Of a DNA stretch of 64,000 bases, positions 1,321-49,943 are shown piece by piece (positions within the stretch are counted from its first letter, which is position 1; every line of letters starts with the position of its first letter). The notes under the pieces are model-generated. The model saw only the letters and a program-made list of their open reading frames with translations. It had not been told where the DNA came from and ran no database searches. The stretch covers positions 38,132,001 through 38,196,000 of the forward strand of contig OZ076409.1 of assembly GCA_964187785.1 (NCBI GenBank). Direction: 5' to 3'. The DNA comes from Amphiscolops sp. MND2022 (lineage: Eukaryota). A program made the position numbers and the translations under genes.

Positions 1321-2609
1321 CTAGGCTAACGCGTTAACGCATATCTTGGTATACGTCGTCGAAGGGCATGCCTCGGCATGCCCACGGACGGGGGGCGTTG
1401 ATAAATATGGGGGCGTTGATATAAAATAATTGTCGTTGTAAGCAACTTGGTATTAAAAGGCACGTGCTGATTTTTCTGCATATCCAGACAGATTACCAAG
1501 ATTTAACTCTATGAAAATGTCGGAACCAATATGTAATCCTTATACTGCGTAGCTCGGGAAGGTAAGGGCCGTAGTTCGGTGCTTTTTGCGAGTACATTCT
1601 CATCTCCCCCGGAAGGGGGGATGGAATGTACTCAACTGTTTCAAGTTATTTGATGAGAAAAAAATGAATAAATACACAAAATTTTTTATTATAACAACAA
1701 AAAAATATGTCAAACGACAACAAAGGGTGTTGATTGATTGCCAAACTGCCATGAATTACGTTCTGAGCAAACCATATTGCATCTCAATGGCTTTCAGATC
1801 AGATAAATACTCATAACGTTTACTATTCACGTGCTTTACACCTCCAAACATCACCTTCAAAACGTCATAAGTCAACGTTGAGCCAAGATAAAAAGACGTT
1901 CTAAACGGCATTTTTCTCCTCTAAACAAGGGCTTTGCACATGCATTCACTTGCTTTACTGGTTTGGGGGTCTTTTCCCCCACTTTGGGGGCCCAAATAAC
2001 GGAAAAAAAAATTTTTGAAAATTTTTGAAATTTTCTAAGTCCCACAACTTTTCGCCCGGGAATGCTGGAACGCTGAAACTCCGTATTTAGGGCCAAATGG
2101 TTTTGCTGGGAATAAAACCGGCCAGGGGAGGCCTTTAGGCGAGTGCATTTTCGAAAAAATGGCAAAGATAAGCTGGACCGTTAGAAAAATGAAACCCCCC
2201 CGCTCCGGAAAAACGCTATATCTCCTCGAGTTTAGGTCCGATTGAGCTGAAAATTTCACACAGCATTCCTGAGACAGTTTGCAAACTTTCGTCAGCAAGG
2301 TTTGGAAGCGCTAGCGTGTACCCGTGGCGAGATATAAGATGAAATTTAAAAAAAGTTGAAAATTTTACCCCAAAAACCGTTATTTTGGTCAACAAAAAAT
2401 GTTTAGCGGGAAAAACGTCAGTAGGGAATCATCTTCACCGTGCCGAGGGGGGTACGTGTGCCAAATTTCAGCCAAATCGTATGGCTAGTTTACGAGATCC
2501 CAATTTTTTATGTCGTTTTCATCGGTTGAAAGACCCGATACCACGGAAGCGCGTCAGGGACCCTCCCCAACCGCGCAACTTCCCCCATTGTGTAAAAAAA
2601 CACCGGCAC
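1321..2609. mobile_element. Cassette type B, representative copy (9 copies, 1286-1292 bp)
   Basis: Diagnostic GATAAATATGGGGGCGTTGATATAAAA after the core. The right-hand body is shared with types C and H. Several different left and right terminal variants occur. Confidence 0.6.
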
Positions 2610-3883
2610 CTAGCGGCTACAGCGCTCCAGGTATATCTTGGTATACGTCGTCGAAGGGCATGCCTCGGCATGCCCACGGACGGTGGGCGTTGATGCAAGT
2701 AGGGGGGCGCTGACGTTAGAGATGGTTTTTGGTGAGGGAAGTTTCAAAATAGGTAAGAAACGTTCACTTTGTCGAGTCACAGTGTACAAAAAGAAGAATT
2801 TTTTCCACAAAATGAAACAATTTTCAATCTCTTTTGTGTTGGGGAAGATATAGACCGTAGTTCCTGACCTTTAGCGAGTACATTCTCATCTCCCCCGGGA
2901 AGGGAGATGGAATGTACTCAACTGTTTCAAGTTATTTGATGAGAATAAAATGAATAAATACACAAAAAAATTGTTATTATAGAAACGAAAATTACGTGAA
3001 AAGACACCAAAGGGTGATAATGGACAGCGAAACTGCAATGAAACACGTTTTGAGCAAAACATGTTGTATCTCAATGGCTTTCAGATGGGATAAATACTCA
3101 AAACATCAATTTTCCGTATCTAACGGTCACCTTCAAAACGACAAAAGTCAATGTCAAGTTAAGATAAAAAGACGTTCTAGACGGCATTTTTCTCGTCTAA
3201 ACAAGGGCTTTCCACATGCATTCACTTGCTTTACTGGTTGGGGGGTCTTTTCCCCCACTTTGAGGGCCCAAATAACGGAAAAAATTTTTTTTGAAAATTT
3301 TTGAACTTTTCTAAGTCCCACAACTTTTCGCCCGGGAATGCTGGAACGCTGAAACTCCGTATTTAGGGCCAAATGGTTTTGTTGGGAATAAAACCGGCCA
3401 GGGGAGGCCTTTAGGCGAGTGCATTTTCGAAAAAATGGCAAAGATAAGCTGGACCGTTAGAAAATTGAAACCCCCCCGCTCCGGGAAAACGCTATATCTC
3501 CTCGAGTTTAAGTCCGATTGAGCTGAAAATTTCACACAGCATTCCTAAGACAGTTTGCAAACTTTCGTCAGCAAGGTTTGGAAGCGCTAGCGTGTACCCG
3601 TGGCGAGATATAAGATGAAATTTAAAAAAAGTTCAAAATTTTACCCCAAAAACCGTTATTTTGGTCAACAAAAAATGTTTAGCGGGAAAAACGTCAGTAG
3701 GAAATCATCTTCACCGTGCCGAGGGGGGTACGTGTGCCAAATTTCAGCCAAATCGTATGGATACTTTAGGAGATCCCGGAATTCAGGGGGTCTATTTAGG
3801 AGTAGGAAAACCGAAAACACAGGAGCGCGCCAGGGGCCCTACCCACACGCGCAGAATTCCTTATCGAATGGAAATCCCGGCAC
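2610..3883. mobile_element. Cassette type C, representative copy (4 copies, 1274-1284 bp)
   Basis: GACGTTAGAGATG after the core, then CGAGTCAC and GAAGATATAGACCGTAGTTCCTGACC. The right-hand body is B-like. Confidence 0.6.
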
Positions 3884-6800
3884 CTAGCCGCTACCGCGCT
3901 AACGCATATTTTGGTGCGGGTCGTCGAAGGGCATGCCTCGGCATGCCCACGGACGGGGGGCGTTGATAAATATGGGGGCGTTGATATAAAAGAATTGTCG
4001 TTGTGAGCAATTTGGTATTAAAAGGCACGTGCTGATTTTTCGGCTTCTCCAGACAGATTACCAAGATATAACTCTATGAAAATGTCGGAACCAATATGTA
4101 ATCCTTATACTGCGTAGCTCGGGAAGGTAAGGGCCGTAGTTCGGTGCTTTTTGCGAGTACATTCTCATCTCCCCCGGAAGGGGGGGATGGAATGTACTCA
4201 ACTGTTCCAAGTTATTTGATGAGAAAAAAATGAATAAATACACAAAATTTTTTATTATAACAAAAAAAAAGTATGTCAAACGACAACAAAGGGCGTTGAT
4301 TGATTGTCAAACTGCAATGAATTACGTTTTGAGCAAACCATATTGCATCTCAATGGCTTTCAGATCAGATAAATACTCATAACGTTTACTATTCACTTGC
4401 TTTACACCTCCAAACATCACCTTCAAAACGTCATAAGTCAACGTTGAGCTAAGATAAAAAGACGTTCTAAACGGCATTTTTCTCGTCCAAACAAGGGCTT
4501 TGCACATGCATTCACTTGTTTTACTGGTTGGGGGTCTTTTCCCCCACTTTGGAGGCCCAAATAACGGAAAAAAAAATTTTTGAAATTTTTTGAAATTTTC
4601 TAAGTCCCACAACTTTTCGCCCGGGAATGCTAGAACGCTGAAACTCCGTATTTAGGGCCAAATGGTTTTGCTGGGAATAAAACCGGCCAGGGGAGGCCTT
4701 TAGGCGAGTGCATTTTCGAAAAAATGGCAAAGATAAGCTGGACCGTTAGAAAAATGAAACCCCCCCGCTCCGGAAAAACGCTATATCTCCGCGAGTTTAA
4801 GTCCGATTGAGCTGAAAATTTCACACAGCATTCCTGAGACAGTTTGCAAACTTTCGTCAGCAAGGTTTGGAAGCGCTAGCGTGTACCCGTGGCGAGATAT
4901 AAGATGAAATTTAAAAAAAGTTGAAAATTTTACCCCAAAAACCGTTATTTTGGTCAACAAAAAATGTTTAGCGAGCAAAACGTCAGTAGGGAATCATCTT
5001 CACCGTGCCGAGGGGGGTACGTGTGCCAAATTTCAGCCAAATCGTACGGCTAGTTTTCGAGATCCCAAAATTTTTGATGGGTACGTAAAGGTTAAAAAAT
5101 CCGAAATCCCGGGAGCGCGTCAGGGACCCTCCCCAACCGCGCAACTTCCCCCTTTGTGTAAAAAAACACCGGCACCTAGCGGCTACCGCGCTCCAGGTAT
5201 ATCTTGGTATACGTCGTCGAAGGGCATGCCTCGGCATGCCCACGGACGGTGGGCGTTGATGCAAGTAGGGGGGCGCTGACGTTAGAGATGAGTTGTGGTA
5301 TGCTGAGTTTCAAAGTAAGTAAGAAACGTTCATTTTGTCGAGTCACAGAGGGCAAAAAGAAGTTTTCTGCGACAAACTGAAACCATTTGCAATCCCTTTT
5401 GTGTTGTGGAAGATATAGACCGTAGTTCCTGACCTTTAGCGAGTACATTCTCATCTCCCCCGGGAAGGGAGATGGAATGTACTCAACTGTTTCAAGTTAT
5501 TTGATGAGAAAAAATGAATAAATACACAAAAAAATTGTTATTATAGAAACGAAAATTACGTGAAAAGACACCAAAGGGTGATATTGGACAGCGAAACTGC
5601 AATGAAACACGTTTTGAGCAAAACATGTTGTATCTCAATGGCTTTCAGATGGGATAAATACTCAAAACATCAATTTTCCGTATCTAACGGTCACCTTCAA
5701 AACCATAAAAGTCAATGTCAAGTTAAGATAAAAAGACGTTCTAAACGGCATTTTTCTCGTCTAAACAAGGGCTTTCCACATGCATTCACTTGCTTTACTG
5801 GTTGGGGGGTCTTTTCCCCCACTTTGAGGGCCCAAATAACGGAAAAAATTTTTTTTGAAAATTTTTGAACTTTTCTAAGTCCCACAACTTTTCGCCCGGG
5901 AATGCTGGAACGCTGAAACTCCGTATTTAGGGCCAAATGGTTTTGTTGGGAATAAAACCGGCCAGGGGAGGCCTTTAGGCGAGTGCATTTTCGAAAAAAT
6001 GGCAAAGATAAGCTGGACCGTTAGAAAAATGAAACCCCCCCGCTCCGAAAAAACGCTATATCTCCCCGAGTTTAAGTCCGATTGAGCTGAAAATTTCACA
6101 CAGCATTCCTGAGACAGTTTGCAAGCTTTCGTCAGCAAGGTTTGGAAGCGCTAGCGTGTATCCGAGGCGAGATATAAGATGAAATATAAAAAAAATTCAA
6201 AATTTTACCCCAAAAACCGTTATTTTGGTCAACAAAAAATGTTTAGCGGGAAAAACGTCAGTAGGAAATCATCTTCACCGTGCCGAGGGGGGTACGTGTG
6301 CCAAATTTCAGCCAAATCGTACGGCTAGTTTACGAGATCGAAGTCAGGTGTCACGCTATCATAGGTTAGAAGACCCGAAACCACGGAAGCGCGTCAGGGA
6401 CCCTCCCCACACGCGCAACATCCCCCATTGTGTAAAAATACACCGGCACCTAGCTGCTACCGCGCTAACGCATATTTTGGTGCGGGTCGTCGAAGGACAT
6501 GCCTCGGCATGCCCACGGACGGGGGGCGTTGATAAATATGGGGGCGTTGATATAAAATAATTGTCGTTGTGAGCAACTTGGTATTAAAAGGCACGTGCTG
6601 ATTTTTCGGCATATCCAGACAGATTACCAAGATATAACTCTATGAAAATGTCGGAACCAATATGTAATCCTTATACTGCGTAGCTCGGGAAGGTAAGGGC
6701 CGTAGTTCGGTGCTTTTTGCGAGTACATTCTCATCTCCCCCGGAAGGGGGGGATGGAATGTACTCAACTGTTCCAAGTTATTTGATGAGAAAAAAATGAA

Positions 6801-9800
6801 TAAATACACGAAATTTTTTATTTTAAAAACAAAAAAGTATGTCAAACGACAACAAAGGGTGTTGATTGATTGCCAAACTGCAATGAATTACGTTTTGAGC
6901 AATCATATTGCATCTCAATGGCTTTCAGATCAGATAAATACTCATAACGTTTACTATTCACTTGCTTTACACCTCCAAACATCACCTTCAAAACGTCATA
7001 AGTCAACGTTGAGCCAAGATAAAAAGACGTTCTAAACGGCATTTTTCTCCTCTAAACATGGCCTTTCCACATGCATTCACTTGATTCACTGGTTGGGGGG
7101 TCTTTTCCCCCACTTTGGGGGCCCAAATAACGAAAAAAAATTTTTTGAAAATTTTTGAAATTTTCTAAGTCCCACAACTTTTCGCCCGAGAATGCTGGAA
7201 CGCTGAAACTCCGTATTTAGGGCCAAATGGTTTTGCTGGGAATAAAACCGGCCAGGGGAGGCCTTTAGGCGAGTGCATTTTCGAAAAAATGGCAAAGATA
7301 AGCTGGACCGTTAGAAAAATGAAACCCCCCCGTTACGGAAAAACGCTATATCTCCTCGAGTTTGAGTCCGATTGAGCTGAAATTTTCACACAGCATTCCT
7401 GAGACAGTTTGCAAACTTTCGTCAGCAAGGTTTGGAAGCGCTAGCGTGCACCCGTGGCGAAATATAAGATGAAATTTAAAAAAAGTTGAAAATTTTACCC
7501 CAAAAACCGTTATTTTGGTCAACAAAAAATGTTTAGCGGGAAAAACGTCAGTAGGAAATCATCTTCACCGTGCCGAGGGGGGTACGTGTGCCAAATTTCA
7601 GCCAAATCGTATGGCTAGTTTACGAGATCTCAATTTTCTTTGTCGATTTCACTAGTTGAAAAACCTGATCTCACGGAAGCGCGTCAGGGACCCTCCCCAA
7701 CCGCGCAACTTCCCCCATTGTGTAAAAAGACACCGGCACCTAGGCTAACGCGCTCGAACATATCTTGGTATACGTCGTCGAAGGGCATGCCTCGGCATGC
7801 CCACGGACGGGGGGCGTTGATAAATATGGGGGCGTTGATATAAAATAATTGTCGTTGTAAGCAACTTGGTATAAAAAAGCACGTGCTGGTTTTTCGGCAT
7901 ATCCAGACAGATTACCAAGATTTAACTCTATGAAAATGTCGGAACCAATATGTAATCCTTATACTGCGTAGCTCGGGAAGGTAAGGGCCGTAGTTCGGTG
8001 CTTTTTGCGAGTACATTCTCATCTCCCCCGGAAGGGGGTGATGGAATGTACTCAACTGTTTCAAGTTATTTGATGAGAAAAAAATGAATAAATACACAAA
8101 ATTTTTTATTATAACAACAAAAAAGTATGTCAAACGACAACAAAGGGTGTTGATTGATTGCCAAACTGCCATGAATTACGTTTTGAGCAAACCATATTCA
8201 TCTCAATGGCTTTCAGATCAGATAAATACTCATAACGTTTACTATTCACGTGCTTTACACCTCCAAACATCACCTTCAAAACGTCATAAGTCAACGTTGA
8301 GCCAAGATAAAAAGACGTTCCAAACGGCATTTTTCTCCTCTAAACATGGCCTTTCCACATGAATTCACTCAAATTACTGGTTGGGGGGTCTTTTCCCCTA
8401 GGGGGGGAGGGCGGAAAACGGAAAAAAAAATTTTTGAAAATTTTTGAACTTTTCTAAGTCCCACAACTTTTCACCCGGGAATGCTGGAACGCTGAAACTC
8501 CGTATTTAGGGCCAAATGGTTTTGCTGGGAATAAAACCGGCCAGGGGAGGCCTTTAGGCGAGTGCATTTTCGAAAAAATGGCAAAGATAAGCTGGACCGT
8601 TAGAAAAATGAAACCCCCCCGCTCCGGAAAAACGCTATATCTCCTTGAGTTTAAGTCCGATTGAGCTGAAAATTTCACACCGCATTCCTGAGACAGTTTG
8701 CAAGCTTTCTTTAGCAGGGTTTGGAAGCGCTAGCGTAAACCCGTGGCGAGATATAAGATGAAATTTAAAAAAAATTCAAAATTTTACCCCAAAAACCGTT
8801 ATTTTGGACAACAAAAAAAATTTTGCGGGAAAAACGTCAGTAGGAAATCATCTTCACCGTGCCGAGGGGGGTACGTGTGCCAAATTTCAGCCAAATCGTG
8901 TGGCTAGTTTAGGAGATCCCGAAAAATCGACCCCTGTTTCCTAGCTGGTGAACACCATACCCAAGAGCGCGCAAGGGACCCTACCCAAGGCGCGCCACAT
9001 ACTTTATCGAATAGAAATCCCGGCACCTAGCGGCTACCGCGCTTGGGGTATATCTTGGTGCACGTCGTCGAAGGGCATGCCTCGGCATGCCCACGGACGG
9101 GGGGCGTTGATAAATATGGGGGCGTTGATATAAAATAATTGTCGTTGTGAGCAACTTGGTATTAAAAGTCACGTGCTGATTTTTCTGCATATCCAGACAG
9201 ATTACCAAGATATAACTCTATCAAAATGTCGAAACCAATATGCAATCTTTATACTGCGTAGCTCGGGAAGGTAAGGGCCATAGTTCGAGGCTTTTTGCGA
9301 GTACATTCTCATCTCCCCCGGGAAGGGAGATGGAATGTACTCAACTGTTTCAAGTTATTTGATGAGAAAAAAATAAATAATTACACAAAATTTTTTATTA
9401 TATCAACAAAAAAAAATGTCAAACGACAACAAAGGGTGTTGATTGACTGCCAAACTGAAATGAATTACGTTTTGGGCAAATCAGATTGCATCTGAATGGC
9501 TTTCAGATCAAATAAATACTCATAACGTTTACTTTTCACGTGCTTCACACCTCTTTACATCACCTTCAAAACGTCATAAGTCAACGTTGAGTAAAGATAA
9601 AAAGACGTTCTAAACGACATTTTTCTCCTCTAAACAAGCGCTTTGCACATGCATTCACTCAAAATACTGGTTGGGGGGTCCTTTCCCCCACATTGGGGGC
9701 CCAAATAACGGAAAAAAAATTTTTGAAAATTTTTGAAATTTTCTAAGTCCCACAACTTTTCGCCCGAAAATGCTAGAACGCTGAAACCCCGTATTTAAGG

Positions 9801-10315
9801 CCAAATGGTTTTTTTGGGAGTAAAACCGGCCAGGGGAGGCCTTTAGGCGAGTGCATTTTCGAAAAAATGGCAAAGATACGCTGGACCGTTAGAAAAATGA
9901 AACCCCCCCGCTCCGGAAAAACGCTATATCTCCTCGAGTTTAAGTCCGATTGAGCTGAAAATTTCACACCGCATTCCTGAGACAGTTTGCAAACTTTCGT
10001 CAGCAAGGTTTTGAAGCGCTAGCGTAAACCTGGGGCGAGATATAAGAGGAAATTTAAAAAAAGTTGAAAATTTTCCACCAAAAACCGTTATTTTGGTCAA
10101 CAAAAAATGTTTAGCGGGAAAAACGTCAGTAGGAAATCATCTTCACCGTGCCGAGGGGGGTACGTGTGCCAAATTTCAGCCAAATCGTATGGATAGTTTA
10201 CGAGATCGGAGATAACTGGGGTGTGAATTTGGAGTAGGAAAACCGAAAACACAGGAGCGCGCCAGGGGCCCTACCCACACGCGCAGAATTCCTTATCGAA
10301 TGGAAATCCCGGCAC

Positions 10316-11584
10316 CTAGAAAAAATTGGGCGCCCTGTGGCGCTAATGGGCATACGTCGTCGAAGGGCATGCCTCGGCATGCCCACGGACGGTGGGCGTT
10401 GATGCGAGTTTGTGGCGTTGACGTTACAGAAGTAACGTTGAGCTGATGGTGTGTAAGGTGGTTAGTAGGGAAAGTTTGGAGTGACAGAGAAAGAAACCAG
10501 TCTAAATATTAGTGGGCTTGCGCGACAGCCTAGAAAACATTGTATAAAAATAAAATTGCGCCATTGTGCGTGTCATTTAGCGGGTACATTCTCATCTCCC
10601 CCACAAAGGGGGAGATGGAATGTACGCAACAGTTTTGTGCTATCGGATGAATAAGACGGTATCAAAACGGTATCAAAGTGGGTCAAAAGACTCTAAATGG
10701 CGTTGCTGCACTAGACAACGGCAATTTACCAGCTTTGGGGTTGACTGGACGTATTCCGATTTGTTTTCAAAGAGACTTAGGTTTTTTAATTTTTTAGCAC
10801 ATAGGAAGCTCACACTAAAAATGTCATAAGTCAACGTCAGGTTAAGCTACAGAGTTTTATAATAGCTCATTTTCCTGGTCTATTCAAGCACTTTCCACAT
10901 GCATTCACTTGCAATACTAGTTGTGTGGAAGTTTCTTGACTTTGGGAGGCCTGAAATTGAAAAAAAATTTTTTGAACATTTTTTGAAAAAATTCTAAGTC
11001 ATTTATCTTTCATTCGGGAAACGCTGGAACGCTGAAACTGCGGCAAAAGGGCCAAATGGCTTTTTTGGGATGTAAACCGGCCAGGGGAGGCCTTTAGGCG
11101 AGGACCTGGAAAAAAATCTGGGCAAAAAACGGCAGAGATAGACTGGGTTTTCGAAAAAAAGTCGAGGAAATGCGCCAAATTTCCGGCTATTACTCATCCA
11201 ATTTTCATCCGATTTGGACGAAATTTTGTTCGCGCACTCCCCTTTTAGTGCTGAGTAATATTGCTCTCCACGTGCGACCCGCTCCGAGCACCTCAAAAAA
11301 AGTTATGGACCGTCAAATTCGAAAAAGACAATAAAAACGCAACAATGGGCATTTTAAACGCAATTTTGGTCAACATAAAATATTTCAATCGAAAAACGCC
11401 ACTAGGAAAAAGTTCTTATAATCTTTCAAGGAGGCTCTGTGCCAAATTTGAGCGAATCCTACAGGCTGGATCCTGAGATCTGAGAATTGTGATAGGTTTT
11501 GCATAGTATGAATTCCGGTTAACAGCCGCCCGGGGCCCCTCCCCCAGCGGCAAAGATTTTGCTGAAAAAAAAATTCCCGGCCAC
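10316..11584. mobile_element. Cassette type D (single divergent copy, 1269 bp)
   Basis: Unique left end CTAGAAAAAATTGGGCGCC. It keeps the core, the second hairpin, the GCTGGAACGCTGAAAC and CCGGCCAGGGGAGGCCTTTAGG blocks and the end GGCCAC, but the sequence between these blocks is divergent. Confidence 0.6.
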
Positions 11585-12866
11585 CTAGCGGGGAAAGACT
11601 GCGTGGCACTGGGCATTTGGCATACGTCGTCGAAGGGCATGCCTCGGCATGCCCACGGACGATGGGGCGTTGATGCAAGCAGGGGGCGTTGACGTTAGAG
11701 ATGTATGGTGGTAGTAGTAGGAGCAAGTAATGTACTTCATGTTAATTATTGTTTTAAAAAATCAAGTAATTAAAAATAACTTTTTTCAAAGCATAGAAAA
11801 CTTCCCATCCAAACATTGGCGCCATAGCATTAGGTTTTTAGCGAGTACATTCTCATCTCCCCCGAAAGGGAGATGAAATGTACTCAACTGCTTGATGTTA
11901 AAAGATGAGATAAATTGGAATAAATACATAAAAACAGTTATTATATAGAAGAAAAAAATACTCAAATGACATCAAAGTGTACTAATACTTTACTAACCTA
12001 CAATGAAAATCGTTTTTAGCAAAACTGCTTGTATCTCAATGGTTTTCCGATGAGATAAAGACTCAAAACTTCAACTTTTAACATGCTTCATATATCCTAA
12101 CATCACATTCAAAACGTCATAAGTCAATGTCAAGTTAAGATAAAAAGATGTGCTAAACGGCATTTTTCTCCTCCAAACATGGGCGTTCCACATGAATTCA
12201 CTCAAAATACTGGTTGGGGGGTCGTTCCCCTTCATTGGGGGCCCGGAAAACGGGGAAAAAAATTTTTGAAAAAATTTTGAAATTTTTCCAAGTCCCACAA
12301 CTTTCCGCCCCGGAATGCTGGAACGCTGAAACTCCGTATTTAGGGCCAAATGGGTTTGCTGGGAGTAAATTCGGCCAGGGGGAGGCCTTTAGGCATGTAC
12401 ATTTTCGAAAAAATGGCAAAGATAAGCTGGACCGTTAAAAAATTTACCCCGGAAACGCCCAAAAAACCGTTAATTTCTCGTCAAGTTTAAGTCCGATTTA
12501 AACCAAAATTTGTCCACGCACTCCTCCAACAGCGCTGAGCAATATTGATGTCCACGTGCGGAACGCTACGGGCACCTGGAAAAGAGATATTGGCTGACAA
12601 AGTTGAAAAATGTGCATTTTTGCCATTTTTGGGTCCGTTATTTGCTCATATCTCCTCTCACAGTGGAATTTGGGAAAAAATACCTTCTACACGTTTTACC
12701 TACTCACCAATTCCAGGCCACATGCCAAATTTCAGAAAAATCGTATGGCTCAAACTATGAGATCTCGTAGAATTCTGCACGTTTCGGTGAGCATCCAATT
12801 CTTCTAGGTCGTCGCGGGGCCCTACCCACTCCTCAATGCAAAAGCACGTCGAAAAGACACGGCCAC
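11585..12866. mobile_element. Cassette type E, representative copy (5 copies, 1281-1283 bp)
   Basis: Begins CTAGCGGGGAAAGACTGCG and has GAGATGTATGGTGGTAGTAGTAGGAGC after the core. The last roughly 270 bp are shared with type A. Confidence 0.6.
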
Positions 12867-15800
12867 CTAGCGGGGAAAGACTGCGTGGCATTGGGCATTT
12901 GGCATACGTCGTCGAAGGGCATGCCTCGGCATGCCCACGGACGATGGGGCGTTGATGCAAGCAGGGGGCGTTGACGTTAGAGATGTATGGTGGTAGTAGT
13001 AGGAGCAAGTAATGTACTTCATGTTAATTATTGTTTTAAAAAATCAAGTAATTAAAAATAACTTTTTTCAAAGCATAGAAAACTTCCCATCCAAACATTG
13101 GCGCCATAGCATTAGGTTTTTAGCGAGTACATTCTCATCTCCCCCGAAAGGGAGATGAAATGTACTCAACTGCTTGATGTTAAAAGATGAGATAAATTGG
13201 AATAAATACATAAAAACAGTTATTATATAGAAGAAAAAAATACTCAAATGACATCAAAGTGTACTAATACTCTGCTAACCTACAATGAAAATCGTTTTTA
13301 GCAAAACTGCTTGTATCTCAATGGTTTCCCGATGAGATAAAGACTCAAAACTTCAACTTTTAACATGCTTCATACATCCTAACATCACATTCAAAACGTC
13401 ATAAGTCAATGTCAAGTTAAGATAAAAAGATGTGCTAAACGGCATTTTTCTCCTCCAAACATGGGCGTTCCACATGAATTCACTCAAAATACTGGTTGGG
13501 GGGTCGTTCCCCTTCATTGGGGGCCCGGAAAACGGGAAAAAAATTTTTGAAAAAATTTTGAAATTTTTCCAAGTCCCACAACTTTCCGCCCCGGAATGCT
13601 GGAACGCTGAAACTCCGTATTTAGGGCCAAATGGGTTTGCTGGGAGTAAATTCGGCCAGGGGGAGGCCTTTAGGCATGTACATTTTCGAAAAAATGGCAA
13701 AGATAAGCTGGACCGTTAAAAAATTTACCCCGGAAACGCCCAAAAAACCGTTAATTTCTCGTCAAGTTTAGGTCCGATTTAAACCAAAATTTGTCCACGC
13801 ACTCCTCCAACAGCGCTGAGCAATATTGATGTCCACGTGCGGAACGCTACGGGCACCTGGAAAAGAGATATTGGCTGACAAAGTTGAAAAATGTGCATTT
13901 TTGCCATTTTTGGGTCCGTTATTTGCCCATATCTCCTCTCACAGTGGAATTTGGGAAAAATTACCTTCTACACGTTTTACCTACTCACCAATTCCAGGCC
14001 ACATGCCAAATTTCAGAAAAATCGTATGGCTCAAACTATGAGATCTCGTAGAATTCTGCACGTTTCGGTGAGCATCCAATTCTTCTAGGTCGTCGCGGGG
14101 CCCTACCCACTCCTCAATGCAAAAGCACGTCGAAAAGACACGGCCACCTAGCGATAATGACTGCGTGGCACTGGGCATTTGGCATACGTCGTCGAAGGGC
14201 ATGCCTCGGCATGCCCACGGACGGTGGGCGTTGATGCAAGCAGGGGGGCGTTGACGTTGGAGGTGGATTGTAGTAGTAAAGTCAAGTAATGTATTTCAAG
14301 TATATTAATTTTTAAAAAATTCCGAAAAAATACAAAAACAAGTCTGTAAGAAGATAAAAAACGCGGGTTTCAAACTTTTGGTCATGGCGCTAGGTCTTTA
14401 GCGAGTACATTCTCATCTCCCCCGAAAGGGAGATGAAATGTACTCAACTGTTTTGAGTTATAAGATAATAAAAATTGGAATAAATACATTAAAATTGTTA
14501 ATATATCGACGAAAAGTATGTTTATATGACACCAAAGGGTATTGGTGCACTGGAAAATTACAACGAAAGACGTTTTGAGCAGGACAGCTTGCATCTCAAC
14601 CGCTTTCATATGAGATAAAGACTCAAAACATCAACTTTTCACATGCCTCCTACATCCTTACATCACATTCAAAACGTCATAAGTCAACGTTGAGTCAAGA
14701 TAAAAAGATGTTCTAAACGGTATTTTTCTCGTCAAAACAAGGGCTTTTGACATGCATTCACTCAAATTACTGGTTGGGGGGTCGTTTCCCCTTCATTGGG
14801 GGCCCGGAAAACGAAAAAAAAATTTTTTGAAAATTTTTGAAAATTTTCCAAGTCCCACAACTTTTCGCCCGGGAATGCTGGAACGCTGAAACTCCGTATT
14901 TAGGGCCAAATGGTTTTGCTGGGAGTAAATTCGGCCAGGGGGAGGCCTTTAGGCGAGTACATTTTCGAAAAAATGGCAAAGATAAGCTGGACCGTTAGAA
15001 AAACCTCCCCAAAAATACCGTTATTTCTCCAAGACTACAAGTCGGATCGGAACGGGCCCAAATTCACCGTACAGCCTCAACACCCTAGAGTTTATAATCA
15101 GCTTAACGCGTCCCGCTCCGGGCACCTGGGAACGAGATATGGGCTGACAAAGTTGAAAAAAGTGCATTTTTGCCATTTTTGGGACCGTTATTTGCCCATA
15201 TCTCGTCTCACAGTGGAATTTGGGAAAAATTACCTTCTACACGTTTTACCTACTCACCAATTCCAGGCCACATGCCAAATTTCAGCAAAATCGTATGGCT
15301 CAAACTATGAGATCTCGTAGAATTCTGCACGTTTCGGTGAGCATCCAATTCTTCTAGGTCGTCGCGGGGCCCTACCCACTCCTCAATGCAAAAGCACGTC
15401 GAAAAGACACGGCCACCTAGCGATAATGACTGCGTGGCACTGGGCATTTGGCATACGTCGTCGAAGGGCATGCCTCGGCATGCCCACGGACGGTGGGCGT
15501 TGATGCAAGCAAGGGGGCGTTGACGTTGGAGGTGGATTGTAGTAGTAAAGTCAAGTAATGTATTTCAAGTATATTAATTTTTAAAAAATTCCGAAAAAAT
15601 ACAAAAACAAGTCTGTAAGAAGATAAAAAACGTGGGTTTCAAACTTTTGGTCATGGCGCTAGGTCTTTAGCGAGTACATTCTCATCTCCCCCGAAAGGGA
15701 GATGAAATGTACTCAACTGTTTTGAGTTAAAAGATAATAAAAATTGGAATAAATACATTAAAATTGTTAATATATCGACGAAAAGTATGTTTATATGACA

Positions 15801-21800: not shown

Positions 21801-24800
21801 CATGGCACTGGGCATTTGGCATACGTCGTCGAAGGGCATGCCTCGGCATGCCCACGGACGGTGGGCGTTGATGCAAGCAGGGGGGCGTTGTCGTTGGAGG
21901 TGGGTTGTAGTAGTAAAGTCAAGTAATGTATTTCAAGTATATTAATTTTTAAAAAAATTCCGAAAAAATACAAAAACAAGTCTGTAAGAAGATAAAAAAC
22001 GTGGGTTTCAAATTTTTGGTCATGGCGCTAGGTCTTTAGCGAGTACATTCTCATCTCCCCCGAAAGGGAGATGAAATGTACTCAACTGTTTTGAGTTATA
22101 AGATAATAAAAATTGGAATAAATACATTAAAATTGTTAATATATCGACAAAAAGTATGTTTATATGACACCAAAGGGTATTGGTGCACTGGAAAGTTACA
22201 ACGAAAGACGTTTTGAGCAGGACAGCTTGCATCTCAACCGCTTTCATATGAGATAAAGACTCAAAACATCAACTTATCACATGCCTCCTACATCCTTACA
22301 TCACATTCAAAACGTCATAAGTCAACGTTGAGTCAAGATAAAAAGATGTTCTAAACGGTATTTTTCTCGTCAAAACAAGGGCTTTCCACATGAATTCACT
22401 CAAAATACTGGTTGGGGGGTCGTTTCCCCTTCATTGGGGGCCCGGAAAACGAAAAAAATTTTTTTGAAAATTTTTGAAAATTTTCCAAGTCCCACAACTT
22501 TTCGCCCGGGAATGCTGGAACGCTGAAACTCCGTATTTAGGGCCAAATGGTTTTGCTGGGAGTAAATTCGGCCAGGGGGAGGCCTTTAGGCGAGTACATT
22601 TTCGAAAAAATGGCAAAGATAAGCTGGACCGTTAGAAAAGGTTCCCCAAAAATACCGTTATTTCTCCAAGACTACAAGTCCGATCGGAACGAGCCTGACT
22701 TCCCCGTACAGCCTCAACACCCTAGAGTTTATAATCAGCTTAACGCGTCCTGCTCCGGGCACCTGGGAACGAGATATGGGCTGACAAAGTTGAAAAAAGT
22801 GCATTTTTGCCATTTTTGGGACCGTTATTTGCCCATATCTCGTCTCACAGTGGAATTTGGGAAAAATCACCTCCTACACGTTTTACCTACTCACCAATTC
22901 CAGGCCATATGCCAAATTTCAGAAAAATCGTATGGCTCAAACTATGAGATCTCGTAGAATTCTGCACGTTTCGGTGAGCATCCAATTCTTCTAGGTCGTC
23001 GCGGGGCCCTACCCACTCCTCGATGCAAAAGCACGTCGAAAAGACACGGCCACCTAGCGGCTACCGCGTTCGAATATATTTTGCTATACGTCGTCGAAGG
23101 GCATGCCTCGGCATGCCCACGGACGGGGGGCGTTGATGTGTGTGGGGGGCGTTGACGTTAGAGATGAGTTGTGGTATGGTGAGATTCAAAGTAAGTAAGA
23201 AACGTTCACTTTGTCGAGTCACAGAGTGCAAAAAGAAGTTTTCTGCGACAAACTGAAACAATCTCTTTTGCAATCTTTTGCAATCTCTTTTGTGTTGTGG
23301 AAGATATAGACCGTAGTTCCTGACCTTTAGCGAGTACATTCTCATCTCCCCCGGGAAGGGAGATGGAATGTACTCAACTGTTTCAAGTTATTTGATGAGA
23401 AAAAAATGAATAAATACACAAAGAAATTGTTATTATAGAAAAAAAAATTACGTCAAAAGACACCAAAGGGTGTTAATGGACAGCGAAACTGCAATGAAAC
23501 ACGTTTTGAGCAAAACATGTTGTATCTCAATGGCTTTCAGATGGGATAAACACTCAAAACATCAATTTTCCGTATCTAACGGTCACCTTCAAAACGACAA
23601 AAGTCAATGTCAAGTTACGATAAAAAAACGTTCTAAACGCCATTTTTCTCGTCTAAACAAGGGCTTTTCACATGCATTCACTTGCTTTACTGGTTGGGGG
23701 GTCTTTTCCCCCACTTTGGGGGCCCAAATAACGGAAAAAAATTTTTTGAAAATTTTTGAAATTTTCTAAGTCCCACAACTTTTCGCCCGGGAATGCTGGA
23801 ACGCTGAAACTCCGTATTTAGGGCCAAATGGTTTTGCTGGGAATAAAACCGGCCAGGGGAGGCCTTTAGGCGAGTGCATTTTCGAAAAAATGGCAAAGAT
23901 AAGCTGGACCGTTAGAAAAATGAAAGCCCCCCGCTCCGGAAAAACGCTATATCTCCCCGAGTTTAAGTCCGATTGAGCTGAAAATTTCACACAGCATTCC
24001 TGAGACAGTTTGCAAACTTTCGTCAGCAAAGTTTGGAAGCGCTAGCGTAAACCCGTGGCGAGATATAAGGTGAAATTTAAAAAAAGTTGAAAATTTTACC
24101 CCAAAAACCGTTATTTTGGTCAACAAAAAATGTTTAGCGAGCAAAACGTCAGTAGGGAATCATCTTCACCGTGCCGAGGGGGGTACGTGTGCCAAATTTC
24201 AGCCAAATCGTGTGGCTAGTTTACGAGATCGTCGAAATCACATCGTGAATTTGGAGTAGGTGTACCCGAAATAAAAGAGCGCGCCAGGGGCCCTACCCAC
24301 ACGCGCCACATACTCGAACGAATAGTAATCCCGGCACCTAGCGGGGAAAGACTGCGTGGCACTGGGCATTTGGCATACGTCGTCGAAGGGCATGCCTCGG
24401 CATGCCCACGGACGATGGGGCGTTGATGCAAGCAGGGGGCGTTGACGTTAGAGATGTATGGTGGTAGTAGTAGGAGCAAGTAATGTACTTCATGTTAATT
24501 ATTGTTTTAAAAAATCAAGTAATTAAAAATAACTTTTCTCAAAGCATAGAAAACTTCCCATCCAAACATTGGCGCCATAGCATTAGGTTTTTAGCGAGTA
24601 CATTCTCATCTCCCCCGAAAGGGAGATGAAATGTACTCAACTGCTTGATGTTAAAAGATGAGATAAATTGGAATAAATACATAAAAACAGTTATTATATA
24701 GAAGAAAAAAATACTCAAATGACATCAAAGTGTACTAATACTCTGCTAACCTACAATGAAAATCGTTTTTAGCAAAACTGCTTGTATCTCAATGGTTTTC

Positions 24801-25620: not shown

Positions 25621-26893
25621 CTAGCGATAATGACAGCGTGGCATATGGTATTTGGCATACGTCGTCGAAGGGCATGCCTCGGCATGCCCACGGACGGTGG
25701 GCGTTGATATTTGGATGTGGAAGTCGGCTATACAAGAAGAAACACTAAAGACAAAAACCATTCAATCTCGCTATAGATTTAGGATATTTTGTCGCAGTGG
25801 TTCGGCAAACGCAAATCACACTTGTTTAGTTATTTGAATCCATCAAAATTGTGAGCTTTACAAGGCTTTTGGCAAACGTACATTCACATCTCCCCTGAGA
25901 GGGAGATGGAATGTACTCAACTGCATAAGATTCTAAGAGAAACAAAGACTTGTATAAAATATATCACAATTTCTAATAAGTCCCAAATACATCCGCTATA
26001 CACTACGGGAATGTACACATGCTTCCGACATCCCAACTGACCCATCGGAACCTTTTCCAGGTTCTTTTCATGCGTTATTGTTTGAAAATTATTGAAAATT
26101 AGGATTTTCACTACTGTGATCACGTGTTATACGCTACTCAAAAGATCATAAGTCAACATCAAGTTAAGATAAAAAGACGTTCTAAATGGCATTTTTCTCG
26201 TCAAGTGCAGGGCTTTCCACATGCATTCACTTGCAATACTAGTTGTGTGGAAGTTTCTTCACTTTGGGCGGCCTGAACTTTTTTAGAAAAATTTTGAAAA
26301 TTTTTGAAAATTTTCTAAGTCATATAAAATTTCGCCCGATAATGCTGGAACGCTGAAACCTCGTATTTAGGGCCAAATGGTTTTTTTGGGAGGTAAACCG
26401 GCCAGGGGAGGCCTTTAGGAGAGGTTCTAGAAAAAAATCTGGGCAAAAAACGGCAGAGATAAACTGGGTTTTCTGAAAAAGTCGCCAAAATGCACAAAAA
26501 AATTTGTTATTACTCTGTCAATTTTTATCCGATTTGGACGAAAATTTGTCCACGTAACCCCCTTCACATGCCGAGCATTTTCCACGTCAGGTATACGGTA
26601 CCTCCGATGCCTCTGGAACGAGATATTGCAAAATTTATCAAAAATGGGTCCATTTTTTACCTCATTTTTCGCGTTTATCTCGTCTCACAGTGGAATTTGG
26701 GAAAAATGACCTCCTACACTTTTCATATGCTCGCCAATTGGGGGCCACATGCAAATTTTCAGGAATTTCTGACGGCTCATCTTCGAGATCGTTTACTCAG
26801 GTACCTATTTTTGTATCATAGTAAAGGCACTAAGTCGGCGCAGGACCCTACCCGCGCCTCCATGGTTAAAGCTCGTCGAAAAAACGCGGCCAC
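25621..26893. mobile_element. Cassette type F (single divergent/mosaic copy, 1273 bp)
   Basis: A-like left end, then about 450 bp of largely unique sequence, a D-like middle (GCAATACTAGTTGTGTGGAAGTTTCTT), an A/E-like TCTCACAGTGGAATTTGGGAAAA block and the end CGCGGCCAC. Confidence 0.6.
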
Positions 26894-29457
26894 CTAGCGG
26901 CTACCGCGTTCGAATATATTTTGCTATACGTCGTCGAAGGGCATGCCTCGGCATGCCCACGGACGGGGGGCGTTGATGTGTGTGGGGGGCGTTGACGTTA
27001 GAGATGAGTTGTGGTAAAGTAAGATTCAATATGGGTCAAAATCGTTCACTTTCCCGAGTCACTGAGTGCAAAAAGAAAAGTTTTCTGCAACAAACTGAAA
27101 CAATTTTCAATTGCTTTTGTGTTGTGGAAGATATAGACCGTAGTTCCTGACCTTTAGCGAGTACATTCTCATCTCCCCCGGGAAGGGAGATGGAATGTAC
27201 TCAACTGTTTCAAGTTATTTGATGAGAAAAAAATGAATAAATACACAAAAAAATTGTTATTATAGAAAAGAAAATTACGTCAAAAGACATCAAAGGGTGT
27301 CAATGGACAGCGGAACTGCAATGAAACACGTTTTGAGCAAAACATGTTGTATCTCAATGGCTTTCAGATGGGATAAATACTCAAAATATCAATTTTCTGT
27401 ATCTAACGGTCACCTTCAAAACGACAAAAGTCAATGTCAAGTTGAAGATAAAAAGACATTCTAAACGCCATTTTTCTTGTCTAAACAAGGGCTTTCCACA
27501 TGCATTCACTTGCTTTACTGGTTGGGGGGTGCTTTCCCCCACTTTGGGGGCCCAAATAACGGAAAAAAAAATTTTTGAAAATTTTTGAAAAATTCTAAGT
27601 CCCACAACTTTTCGCCCGGGAATGCTGGAACGCTGAAACTCCGTATTTAGGGCCAAATGGTTTTGCTGGGAATAAAACCGGCCAGGGGAGGCCTTTAGGC
27701 GAGTACATTTTTGAAAAAATGGCAAAGATAAGCTGGACCGTTAGAAAAATGAAACCCCCCCGCTCCGGAAAAACGCTATATCTCCTCGAGTTCAAGTCCG
27801 ATTGAGCTGAAATTTTCACACAGCATTCCGGAGACAGTTTGCAAACTTTCGTCAGCAAGGTTTGGAAGCGCTAGCGTGCACCCGTGGCGAGATATAAGAT
27901 GAAATTTAAAAAAAGTTGAAAATTTTACCCTAAAAACCGTTATTTTGGTCAACAAAAAATGTTTAGCGGGAAAAACGTCAGTAGGGAATCATCTTCACCG
28001 TGCCGAGGGGGGTACGTGTGCCAAATTTCAGCCAAATCGTATGGCTAGTTTACGAGATCCCAATTTTTTATGTCGTTTTCATCGGTTGAAAGACCCGATA
28101 CCACGGAAGCGCGTCAGGGACCCTCCCCAACCGCGCAACATCCCCCATTGTGTAAAAAAACACCGGCACCTAGGCTAACGCGCTCGAACATATCTTGGTA
28201 TACGTCGTCGAAGGGCATGCCTCGGCATGCCCACGGACGGGGGGCGTTGATAAATATGGGGGCGTTGATATAAAATAAATGTCGTTGTGAGCAACTTGGT
28301 ATAAAAAAGCACGTGCTGGTTTTTCTGCATACCCAGACAGATTACCAAGATATAACTCTATCAAAATGTCGGAACCAATATGCAATCTTTATACTGCGTA
28401 GCTCAGGAAGGTAAGGGCCGTAGTTCGGGGCTTTTTGCGAGTACATTCTCATCTCCACCGTGAAGGGGGGATGGAATGTACTCAACTGTTTCAAGTTATT
28501 TGATGAGAAAAAAATGAATGAATACACGAAATTTTTTCTTATATCAACAAAAAAAGATGTCAATTGACAACAAAGGGTGTTGATTGACTACCAAACTGAT
28601 ATGAATTACGTTTTGAGCAAAACAGGTTGCATCTCAATGGCTTTCAGATCAGATAAATACTCATAACGTTTACTTTTCACGTGCTTCACACCTCCAAACA
28701 TCACCTTCAAAACGTCATAAGTCAACGTTGAATAAAGATAAAAAGACGATTTAAACGGGATTTTTCTCCTCTAAACATGGCCTTTCCACATGAATTCACT
28801 CAAATTACTGGTTGGGGGGTCTTTTCCCCTCGGGGGGGAGGGCGGAAAACCGAAAAAAAAAATTTTGAAAATTTTTGAAATTTTCTAAGTCCCACAACTT
28901 TTCGCCCGGGAATGCTGGAACGCTGAAACTCCGTATTTAGGGCCAAATGGTTTTGCTGGGAATAAAACCGGCCAGGGGAGGTCTTTAGGCGAGTACATTT
29001 TCGAAAAAATGGCTAAGATAAGCTGGACCGTTAGAAAAATGAAACCCCCCCCGCTCCGGAAAAACGCTATATCTCCCTGAGTTCAAGTCCGATTGAGCTG
29101 AAAATTTCACACCGCATTCCTGAGACAGTTTGCAAGCTTTCTTTAGCAGGGTTTTGAAGCGCTAGCGTAAACCGGTGGCGAGATATAAGATAAAACTTAA
29201 AAAAAATTCAAAATTTTACCCCGAAAACCGTTATTTTGGACAACAAAAAAAATTTTGCGGGAAAAACGTCAGTAGGAAATCATCTTCACCATGCCGAGGG
29301 GAGTACGTGTGCCAAATTTCAGCCAAATCGTGTGGCTAGTTTAGGAGATCCCGAAAAATCGACCCCTGTTTCCTAGCTGGTGAACACCATACCCAAGAGC
29401 GCGCCAGGGACCCTACCCACACGCGCCACATACTTTATCGAATAGAAATCCCGGCAC

Positions 29458-31430
29458 CTAGCCCGGGATGTACGGGCGTCGTTAGGTATGTATTTGGTAT
29501 ACGTCGTCGAAGGGCATGCCTCGGCATGCCCACAGACGGTGGGCGTTGATGTAAAGTGTGTGGCGTTGACGTTAATTAAACTAAAATATGACGTTTCAGC
29601 TTCCATAATGAAATGTAATATTCCATTTGAACTTTTATAAATCTGTTACATACATTCCAATTAATACCATTTGTTAGGTAAATAGGTTTCCTGGCATTTA
29701 GGACACATTTTGTATGGAAAAAACCATTTTTTTCAACAATTTGCTCACTATGATTCTAATAACGGAATCATGACGGCATAGTTTTTGTCGTTGATACACT
29801 GTTGATGAAGCTCTAATTGGTACTAATGCAATATATACCTACCCAAAAACACTCTTGATTAACGATTTCAGAAGGATAGCGCTTCCAAGTTGACACCAGG
29901 CCAACTTGAAAGGCTATCAAAATGTAACGGTTATGTTGGTTGAGGTTTCGGAGTCTCTGAAACTATATGGAAAAACTTTAATTTTTAATAATAGTCCATA
30001 ATAGTCGACAAAGGTACGCCGAAAGACATTTTCAAACCAAAAACCTATCCTGTGTCCAACGGTTTGGACTTCCGGTGCTATATACCCCGTTACCCCCCAC
30101 AAGGTTTCATGACTATGTTCACTACTGCAGACCGTCGAAACACCTAATAGATACTTTTATCTACAAAATACCCAACATTTGTACACAATAGACACAAAAT
30201 TTGACCATTTCCGGTCGTTTACGGTACCAGGGGGACTTTAGGGTCAACATAACGGTTATGTCCGAATGCTCGCCTAACGTCCTTCCTTACATCATACAGT
30301 GTCCAAGCACCTATTACCACTCCTTCCGCATCTAAATGCCCTTCAAATAGGACAAAAATGGCAATTTTTTTCACATAACCGTCATTTCCGGTCGTAAGGG
30401 GTAACGAGGGGTGACTGAAACTATGTCCCCCAACTCGTCTCAATGAGTACTACAATAAGTTACCTAACGTTCCCTGGCTGGGACCGACCCTTTGGGCTCA
30501 AAATATGACATTTCCGGTCACTTAATGGTTAGCCTGGGGGGCCAAGTCCGTAACGGTGATAGATAGCGGAAATCTGTTTGCCCCCCTGAAGGCACCATAT
30601 CATGAGTATGAAACCTTGTAGTAGTGAAGGACACCGTAGCTCCACGCGTTCACGAGATATTTACCCCTCAATGCCCATTTTCCGTTTTTAACCGTAAAAA
30701 AACGGGCCGGAAGCCCCATTTCCTGCTAACGGGTTGGGCCAGGGGGTCCCAAACCACATGTTTCCGATAGATCCTTGTCTAAACCTACTTTTGATATATG
30801 GCACCCGACGCGCTACTCCCACTCCTTCACACCGGAAATAGCGGTAAAACGTGGAGGGGGACATTTTTGCCGCTCATATAACGGTCATTTCCTGTGCGGG
30901 GGGTAAACTGAGGTTCACAAACTACATGTCCCCCACTTCGTCTCAAGGCCGTCCCCAAAACATCACCTAACGACCCCGCGCTCAGACGACTCCTTCCGGG
31001 TCAAAAACCTGCGTTTCCGGAAAAATAACGTTTTGGGCGGGGGGGTACTTGGAGATAGCTTCAAGCTAGAAAAATTTGGTTTGGACCTCCGGAGCCCTTG
31101 CAACACGGTCAAGAAACTTTTAGCAGGGTCCCAACGTTTTAAATCAACAGAAAAAAAGTTATGTGGCCCAATATGAATTTTACCCCTAAAATGACCCCCT
31201 AACGGTCGCCCGTGTGGCCAGAAAAAAATTTTCCGGGGTATGGAACCCGGTGGGGGGCGCTAATTTTCGGAAAATCTGGTGGGGGCCGCTCCAACTTTAA
31301 AATCCTATGGTTAGATCACGAGATCCCGAAATTTTTGCAAGATTTCCTATCGATAGCTATTAGAGTTAAAATCGGATTCAGGACCCTACCCGAATCCTCC
31401 AATATATTTGTTGGGGTTACCCCCCCGCAC
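29458..31430. mobile_element. Cassette type G, long form (1973 bp), copy 1
   Basis: Shares only terminal motifs with the other types: CTAG, the core hairpin, GCGTTGA twice, AATCCTATGG-N10-GAGATC, GGACCCTACCC and CAC. The interior of about 1.7 kb is unrelated to the other types. Confidence 0.65.
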
Positions 31431-36543: not shown

Positions 36544-37819
36544 CTAGCTGCTACCGCGTTCGGGGTATATCTTGGTGCACGTCGTCGAAGGGCATGCCTC
36601 GGCATGCCCACGGACGGGGGGCGTTGATAAGAACTATGGGGCGTTGACGTAAACATGTGTCGTTGTGAGGAAACTTTGTATAATCAGGACAGAATTTTCG
36701 GTTTTTCCAGTCAATCTACAAAGATAAAAATATATCAAAAGGTCTGCATGCATATGCAATATTTGTAGTGCGTAGCTCGGGAAGGTATTGGCCGTAGTTC
36801 TTGGCTTTTAGCGAGTACATTCTCATCTCCCCCGGGAAGGGAGATGGAATGTACTCAACTGTTTCAAGATATTAGATTAAAAAAAAAGAAAAAATGCACA
36901 AAAAATTGGTTTTATATCAAAGCAAAAATATGTCAAAAGTCACCAAAGGGTGTTAATAGACAGCGAAACTGCAATGAAACCCGTTTTGAGCAAAACATGT
37001 TGTATCTCAATGGCTTTCAGATGAGATAAATACTCAAAACATCAATTTTCCATATCTAACGGTCAATTTCAAAACGTCATAAGTCAACGTTGAGTAAAGA
37101 TAAAAAGACGTTCTAAACGGCATTTTTCTCCTCTATACAAGGGCTTTGCACATGCATTCACTCAAATTAATGGTTGGGGGGTCCTTTCCCCCACTTTGGG
37201 GGCCCAAACAACAAAAAAAAAATTTTTGAAAATTTTTGAAATTTTCTAAGTCCCACAACTTTTCGCCCGAGAATGCTAGAACGCTGAAACTCCGTATTTA
37301 GGGCCAAATGGTTTTTTTTGGGAGTAAAACCGGCCAGGGGAGGCCTTTAGGCGAGTGCATTTTCGAAAAAATGGCAAAGATAAGCTGGACCGTTAGAAAA
37401 ATGAAACCCCCCCGCTCCGGAAAAACGCGATATCTCCCCGAGTTTTTGTCCGATTGAGCTGAAAATTTCACACCGCATTCCTGAGACAGTTTGCAAACTT
37501 TCGTCAGCAAGGTTTTGAAGCGCTAGCGTAAACCCTTGGCGAGATATAAGATGAAATTTAAAAAAAATCAAAAATTTTCCACCAAAAACCGTTATTTTGG
37601 TCAACAAAAAATGTTTAGCGGGCAAAACGTCAGTAGGGAATCATCTTCACCGTGCCGAGGGGGGTACGTGTGCCAAATTTCAGCCAAATCGTGTGGCTAG
37701 TTTTCGAGATCCGAGATAACCGATGTGTGAATTTAGAGTAGGAAAACCCAAAACACAGGAGCGCGCCAGGGGCCCTACCCACACGCGCAGAATTCCTTAT
37801 CGAATGGAAATCCCGGCAC
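36544..37819. mobile_element. Cassette type H (single copy, B/C-related, 1276 bp)
   Basis: Unique segment GATAAGAACTATGGGGCGTTGACGTAAACATG after the core, followed by C-like and B-like blocks. Confidence 0.55.
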
Positions 37820-42302: not shown

Positions 42303-42525
42303 GTGTTTTCCGTCGTTCGTGTCGGGGTTGGCCATCACTGCGACCCTTGTGACCCCCGTTCTATTCGCACTGCTGCCCTCGTTCGTTTGGAGTCAGCGAG
42401 TGACATGCAACGAATTGTGTACCTCCATGTATCTTACCATGTGCTGTAAGATGGTCGTGCTTGCAGTCGGCTGTTGGGCCCTCCATCTGAGAAGACCCCG
42501 GGCTAACCTACCCTCAAACAGCATA
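42303..42525 (+). CDS. vangl: Van Gogh-like/Strabismus planar cell polarity protein, internal exon (TM1-TM2)
   Basis: Acceptor TTGTTGCAG, donor GTTAGC. Translates to CFPSFVSGLAITATLVTPVLFALLPSFVW...CNELCTSMYLTMCCKMVVLAVGCWALHLRRPRANLP, matching the Vangl pattern P.AF..LP..LW...C...CEG......FKLLIL..G.WALF.R...A..P. Confidence 0.88.
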
Positions 42526-49930: not shown

Positions 49931-49943
49931 CTGCTTGTAGCGA

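Follow-up and report, generated by a model that had tools for sequence, protein, structure and literature searches.

The 26-nt stretch that follows the motif GAGATC near the right end of a set of repeated units in Amphiscolops sp. MND2022, hereafter the tag, is most likely a free spacer made conspicuous by the homogenisation of its neighbour. The window analysed here, 64,000 nt of contig OZ076409.1, contains a head-to-tail array in which units of several families share one anatomy and meet at exact junctions; their tags are homologous, and the units are mosaics of one another. On balance, we favor a reading in which the tag is a spacer, free in its sequence, within the end module of non-autonomous Helitron-like elements, and in which old versions of that spacer escaped the homogenisation acting next to it.

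Units of several families are joined exactly in one array

All array units lie in a single strand orientation, in the order A B C B C B B B N9 A' A' A A A' A A A' A C A' N21 C B L A A B B H B L (Table 1). Units were cut at CACC/TAG, where the stroke marks the limit between neighbors, and the unit starts given in the initial annotation therefore lie one base further left. Every internal junction has this sequence, and the minus strand of each unit ends with CTAG. Different families meet at 11 of the 30 junctions between complete units, always exactly, with family-specific sequence reaching the 7-mer on both sides and without filler. These exact, filler-free joints between families point to site-specific joining as their probable origin. 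The array has clearly been reshuffled by crossing-over; a satellite spread by unequal crossing-over alone fails on the 11 exact between-family joints, which share only 7 nt.

An assembly artefact appears unlikely because identical tags, without a single mismatch, are found as far as 33 kb apart. One sequencing run shared 0.16 of words and gave 7 contigs on 2790-4060; four of these, 151-314 nt long at depth 2-5, fall on parts of the body, with none reaching across the tag or the junction.

The length of 29 of the 31 units is 1267-1292 nt, while the two L units measure 1971-1973 nt. Families of the short class are only 54-68% alike, yet have collinear boxes in common, and family L has little in common with the other units beyond the ends. 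Along whole units, A/T phasing of 10-11 nt was detected in 8 of 8 representatives (p at most 0.005), compared to 2 of 17 flank blocks that reach 0.10. Lengths and phasing together hint at a nucleosome-sized constraint. Inside family L units, a decayed periodicity of about 166 nt was detected (lags 167, 332 and 499, z 4.9-12 vs a shuffle maximum of 4.4); a search for sub-repeats of about 160 nt in short families gave no consistent period in 7 of 7 tested.

Two side observations concern the same units. A multiple of 160-164 nt approximates the unit lengths, 8-fold for the short units and 12-fold for L. Furthermore, u9 (10317-11585) and u21 (25622-26894) each represent a family with a single copy; each has patches in common with the other and with family A, and the left end of u21 is A-like.

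Both ends of the units carry conserved structures. The core 20-mer of the left-end palindrome is exact in 29 of 31 units. At the right end, 4 of 5 families have a stem of 5-6 bp, compared to a mean of 2.9 bp for cross-family arms, and its sequence varies from family to family while the loop stays fixed; family A has a stem of only 3 bp. B and C units bear a second, inverted copy of the GAGATC box. A left-end variable window of about 8 nt follows directly after the junction, within the haplotypes of the smaller variable window listed in Table 1.

None of the 12 array ORFs tested had a Pfam match, and no transposase was found in the array. No Rfam family reached its gathering score in the window, and a snoRNA match in 9028-12900 was rejected at 23 bits against a cut-off of 60. 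A metagenome scan with an 18-nt piece of the hairpin, a query that is too short, returned 118 loci, none of which extended the hairpin, and the best unit alignments were 23-35 nt long; the 29-nt hairpin had 0 matches in viral contigs.

Table 1. Coordinates of the array, its units, tags and downstream exons within the window.
Feature	Position	Strand	Remarks
Head-to-tail array	1-41079	+	31 complete units plus the end of a further one; left boundary outside the window
Unit junction CACC/TAG	2607-2613	.	31/31 internal junctions
Outer right boundary CACC/AAG	41076-41082	.	Sole flank in the window; 1 base off the internal junction
Unit u2, type B	1322-2610	+	1289 nt; bears the tag studied
Long internal palindrome	1590-1633	+	Kept in 7/7 aligned 1.27-1.29 kb representatives; absent from family L (alignment, blastn)
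Homogenised stretch of about 480 nt among B/C/H	1995-2473 (approximate)	+	6-40 differences in about 478
Conserved box ending GAGATC	2460-2499 (GAGATC 2494-2499)	+	GAGATC at this place in 31/31 units
u2 tag, 26-nt variable spacer	2500-2525	+	Identical in u22 (28060-28085)
Right-end stem-loop	2549-2576	+	5-6 bp stem around conserved GG(A/G)CCC..CCC loop
Second, smaller variable window, left end of B/C/H units	2614-2640	+	10 haplotypes/14 over the first 27 columns
Left-end palindrome	2647-2682	+	Nearly invariant in all families including L
u3 tag	3776-3801	+	Identical in u28 (36436-36461)
u4 tag	5065-5091	+	One base longer
u5 tag	6340-6365	+	
u6 tag	7630-7655	+	Identical in u27 (35149-35174); 19/26 to u2 tag
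u7 tag	8919-8944	+	Identical in u23 (29351-29376) and u30 (39000-39025)
u8 tag	10208-10233	+	
u19 tag	24231-24256	+	
Family L unit	29459-31431	+	1973 nt; second copy 39109-41079
u29 tag	37712-37737	+	21/26 to u8 tag
Strabismus/Vangl exons	42280-42516, 44018-44146, 60185-60442	+	Pfam PF06638, E 3.6e-14, 4.9e-20, 4.7e-21

Tags are homologous and shared between bodies

The nine tag variants that the initial annotation had listed on the 14 B, C and H units are all exact, as are their assignments to units. Its claim that identical tags sit on B and C bodies also holds: the left arms of u2/u22 and u3/u28 differ at 69 and 67 of 110 columns, respectively. Such shared tags, together with the mosaicism of the units, support the proposal that tags are exchanged as modules.

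Conversely, the cassettes had been described as otherwise near-identical, which they are not, as whole units are only 79-99% alike. In left-arm spacers, the divergence among B, C and H is as deep as in the tags (distance between clusters of 0.44-0.69 in columns 100-250 vs 0.65 in the tag). The tags, described there as radically different, are also not unrelated to each other, as shown by the identity between the tags of u2 and u6 and of u8 and u29 (Table 1) and by a mean tag identity of 0.354 compared to 0.258 ± 0.014 in shuffles (0 of 3000 reach it). Furthermore, B/C/H tags resemble the tags of A, N9, N21 and L (0.332 vs 0.268, 1 of 3000 shuffles), and all 13 tags share a fixed A/T profile (variance 0.057 vs 0.018, 0 of 3000 shuffles) that fits the unit-wide phasing of 10-11 nt. 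No tag column is invariant, and all six substitution classes were seen.

In all 14 B/C/H units, GAGATC lies 57-59 nt from the GG(A/G)CCC loop, compared to 52-55 nt for units of the other families. The fallback of the initial annotation, a neutral spacer of constrained length, is also supported.

At a distance of 25%, the tags fall into 8 clusters, making the tag the most lineage-rich stretch of the unit. By the same measure, the 480 nt upstream form 1 cluster (mean pairwise distance 0.05), the next 23 nt form 5, the last 57 columns 1 and the left arm 3; left of the right-end module, no window of 27 columns exceeds 5 clusters. Among the 91 B/C/H pairs, 6 differ at 0 tag positions and none at 1-4, so that distances are either 0 or at least 5 of 26. 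In families A and A', a single change was counted in 338 tag nt compared to 80 in 2600 just upstream, and the same tag is present in 12 of 13 family A units. The A/A' counts and the B/C/H pair distances rule out steady hypermutation of the tag; a comparison of pairs with the same tag is circular and was left out of this judgement.

Probable homogenisation of the neighbouring stretch and possible selection on the tag

Within the flat stretch of about 480 nt, B/C/H units differ by 1-8%, and its right part is poorly conserved compared to A, N9 and N21. Because this right part aligns poorly between families, the stretch is not under strong constraint; given also that the tag is only as deep as the left-arm spacers, the oddity lies in the flatness of the neighbour. 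Recombination among units is apparent from a four-gamete minimum of 54 intervals, 14 of them in the flat stretch, a count inflated by repeated mutation in saturated columns. Another sharp-edged patch occurs at approximately columns 660-700 in 4 pairs. A mirror case was observed between A and A', which differ at 22-29 of 50 columns up to another GAGAT box and at 0-4 of 50 past it.

We built a toy model with uniform mutation, fixed boxes, turnover of units and homology-dependent conversion. Its settings were searched by hand, and the model therefore demonstrates possibility only. It failed in 12 of 12 lower-conversion settings and in 4 of 8 high-conversion settings; in 4 of the 8 high-conversion settings, a flat interior (0.00-0.06) stood beside a tag of 2-9 lineages in most snapshots. 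These settings indicate that an edge effect can produce the abrupt left border without selection. However, the successful runs left the next 23 nt and the terminus as diverse as the tag, while the observed cluster counts drop from 8 to 5 to 1, and only 2 of 48 snapshots combined a flat interior with at least 8 tag lineages. The rightward fall would also be explained if a few terminal haplotypes had spread recently, or if constraint were stronger than in the model.

The preferred reading, in which the tag is a spacer between the conserved box and the stem-loop, can be set out as follows. The units would be non-autonomous rolling-circle (Helitron-like) elements whose mobility and strand polarity we infer from their ends. 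Read on the minus strand, the end module (terminus, stem-loop, spacer and conserved box) would come first and the palindrome and CTAG last, with copies of several families joined exactly at the CTAG end. Tag versions would represent old subfamily ends that diverged as far as other free spacers did. Frequent patchy recombination between units would have flattened their long shared interior, presumably in tracts whose homology gave out at the last conserved box and where the unit stops, so that old end versions may have persisted and moved between bodies.

The neutral model misses the rightward fall in diversity, which leaves room for alleles maintained by selection. Tag versions may thus have been kept apart as a footprint of a host repressor that the elements escaped, or as a specificity site read by variants of the transposase; conversion would then flatten both flanks while selection protects the 26 nt. 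We regard this as possible but not probable. The diversifying escape put forward in the initial annotation may hold on the same grounds. In six pairs, chosen for that pattern, the tags are far more divergent than either flank. For instance, u3 and u8 have 13 differences in 26 tag positions, 0 in 83 downstream and 28 in 498 upstream, and the pairs u3/u29 and u2/u4 likewise combine a narrow peak with flat flanks on both sides. PMC3924837 presents narrow divergence peaks with homogeneous flanks as a mark of selection acting under gene conversion, and the lineage count of the tag, the highest in the unit, is in line with it. In contrast, the sharp-edged patch lies away from the tag, family A, the commonest in the array, is nearly uniform at the site, the tag is no deeper than the left-arm spacers, and the binding partner that selection would call for is hypothetical.

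Other origins of the tag

A burst of rewriting was considered as well, in which transposition or repair would involve a mutagenic or templated step acting locally beside the bound box, with faithful copying afterwards. Bimodal distances and the fixed tag length are what such a burst would leave, and in the window the same tags were not seen on other right arms that could have donated them. However, the site has no invariant column, shows six kinds of substitution and no adenine-only pattern, family A is quiet at the same site, and the entire 110-nt end, beyond the tag alone, is old and mosaic. Rewriting is therefore very doubtful. The same lack of an adenine-only pattern and of an invariant column, together with the lack of a template-like match in the window, led us to reject the variable repeat of a diversity-generating retroelement. 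A microsatellite remnant near the tag was not supported, as 15 distinct segments of 50 nt had no periodicity of 2-6 nt (p 0.88).

The reading of the tag as a barcode, guide or spacer, put forward by the initial annotation, was not supported. Spacers of CRISPR-like or guide arrays are unrelated to each other and have foreign or genomic targets, whereas the tags are related and A/T-patterned and have no target in the window, where 0 of 13 matched elsewhere better than shuffles. Nor do tags predict the neighboring unit, since the tags shared by u2/u22 and u3/u28 precede different bodies. Some native ends fold back on their tag, but no better than chimeras (p 0.70-0.94), and pairing of the tag with its own end was rejected. 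A length near that of piRNAs, the conserved motif upstream, the stem-loop downstream and the cassette-like array would suit tags that serve as guides, captured spacers or small-RNA cassettes with expression driven from the conserved box, yet the homology and pattern of the tags, their lack of matches, of covariation with the neighboring unit and of better native folds, the lack of an Rfam family at gathering score, and the lack of an exact match in viral contigs for the 3 of 9 B/C/H tags tried, a weak test for an animal, make such an origin highly improbable.

Relation to Helitron-like and other elements

We compared the units with the definitions of HLE1 and HLE2 as given in part in PMC4067079 and PMC4344730. 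For HLE1, the 3' CTRR is represented by CTAG on the minus strand in 31 of 31 junctions, where the G may belong to either unit. An invariant palindrome lies about 30-70 nt from CTAG, and the last 35 nt form only weak hairpins of uneven strength (0 to -6.7 kcal/mol, 19 distinct ends). The 5' TC is absent, as all units start with GTG/GGTG on the minus strand and C, G or A follows CTAG on the plus strand. Insertion between A and T was not seen in either orientation at the sole visible flank (41080 onward, n=1). For HLE2 and HINEs, the 3' palindrome occurs in all families and a 5' stem of 5-6 bp in 4 of 5. Subterminal inverted repeats of 11-15 nt were not found, the best 12-nt match being 8-9 of 12, as in shuffles, in 9 of 9 representatives; likewise, exact inverted matches were no longer than in shuffles in the 13 tested. 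The 5' module contains no microsatellite, and, taking GGTG as the unit start, the single outer flank visible has TT at its end on the minus strand. The units may thus work like a Helitron-like element, yet fit neither group, not HLE1 because of the missing 5' TC and A-T site, and not HLE2 because of the missing subterminal inverted repeats.

Several traits recall canonical Helitrons such as Helraiser and lepidopteran Hel-2. A right end made of a palindrome and CTAG is described in parts of PMC4778049 and PMC11417382, and, as in these elements, the units have a minus-strand CTAG with an upstream palindrome and no terminal inverted repeat. The latter source also depicts left termini as more diverse than right termini, and exact head-to-tail joints and tandem arrays of Helitrons are reported in PMC5876387, at least in the sections on these topics; the units resemble HLE1 in all three respects. 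The account of Hel-2 further mentions a variable microsatellite near its 5' end. Unlike HLE1, the units start with GTG/GGTG instead of TC, their sole flank is not A-T, and their large palindrome is about 30-70 nt from CTAG compared to 11. Moreover, a single rolling-circle concatemer would not mix families as the array does. Non-canonical Helitron ends do exist, as with CCAA in Paramecium (part of PMC13085455).

HLE2 elements and HINEs (DINE-1, mite HINE, oyster Cg_HINE) share with the units, as far as the accounts of them extend, a 5' stem-loop, a variable segment, a 3' palindrome, a non-coding nature and the lack of a target duplication. According to PMC7492417, the 5' module of oyster HINEs includes a segment of high variability, and their central repeats measure 140-180 nt, a length that in the array only the period of family L resembles. 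In contrast, the units have no subterminal inverted repeats of 11-15 nt, their variable segment has a fixed length and no microsatellite, and their junctions have no T runs, TT being found only at the outer flank on the minus strand.

The IS91 target reads CTTG/CAAG. IS91-type elements and Replitrons resemble the units in that they lack inverted repeats, have hairpins near the ends and share a tetranucleotide at the terminus with their target (CTAG at the junction and CAAG at the flank of the units); tetranucleotide targeting by IS91 and the short terminal repeat of Replitrons are covered in part of PMC10288648. The direct repeat expected of Replitrons and Cryptons would fit CCTAG at the junction and CCAAG at the flank, at the right boundary only. 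However, IS91 is bacterial, and Replitrons, as that account has it, come from algae, plants and protists and have a direct repeat at both termini, while no Rep gene is found here.

Independently of what the tag is, the units could be cassettes moved by a tyrosine recombinase, Crypton-like or integron-cassette-like, that crosses over inside CACCTAG, instead of by a rolling-circle enzyme. The lack of terminal inverted repeats, of visible duplication and of filler at 31 of 31 junctions, the similarity of the outer flank to the junction and the mixed family order would agree with this, and Cryptons have terminal direct repeats of 4-6 bp and proposed circles according to the portion of PMC3212892 devoted to them. 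Crypton and integron cassette arrays also share with this one a short direct repeat at the ends, exact joints and a mixed cassette order. They differ in that no recombinase gene is found in the window, inverted arms around the crossover are not found at the junction, and the cassettes here are free of genes. In addition, the changing stem around a fixed loop suggests single-stranded recognition, and CTAG with a palindrome is a Helitron right end. We therefore consider a tyrosine recombinase rather unlikely.

The array precedes Strabismus/Vangl exons

Three exons that match Strabismus/Vangl (Table 1) identify the window as animal DNA. The first Vangl exon detected lies 1.2 kb beyond the array and starts at position 80 of the Pfam profile, and no exon earlier than 42280 was found in the window. 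The array may therefore lie within a Vangl intron. ORFs with DUF1759, aspartyl protease, DUF5641 and DDE_3 Pfam matches sit among the exons; we take them to be Bel/Pao and Tc1-like remnants.

Other repeats were noted in this region. A retrotransposon-like insert between Vangl exons (47764-51115) has long similar terminal stretches near 47764 and 51014 and minus-strand gag-like and protease ORFs. A near-perfect inverted repeat of about 55 nt per arm lies in intron DNA at 53340-53456, and a decayed repeat at 54640-55050 has A/T-phased boxes that resemble the box family of the array, yet does not align to the units. A second retrotransposon remnant (DUF5641, 56726-58816) has an inverted internal segment, and is followed by a remnant of a Tc1/mariner-like transposase (60848-61956; DDE_3, HTH_Tnp_Tc3_2) and by a short 10/39-nt minisatellite at 62422-62700.

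Implications

The exact, mixed-family, constant-length array with non-canonical ends is more unusual than the tag. In the open literature, supplements aside, we found no report of exact arrays of mixed families. It is conceivable, though unlikely, that an animal element grows integron-like libraries, in which non-coding cassettes of about 1.28 kb from many families insert exactly at earlier ends, and in which the 26 nt are a selected specificity or escape site whose alleles, shuffled onto common bodies, decide how the transposase recognizes the end or how the host silences it.

If the tag is a free spacer, it would be a clean, small example of how gene conversion can fake a barcode at the end of a repeat. 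If its versions are maintained by selection, a conflict between transposon and host, or between transposon and transposase, would be pinned to a 26-nt site with natural alleles. In addition, the array would stand as a case of Helitron-like elements whose ends are non-canonical and which, next to or within a Vangl gene, stack exactly, irrespective of family and at a constant length, and an autonomous partner with these ends could represent a new rolling-circle or recombinase group.
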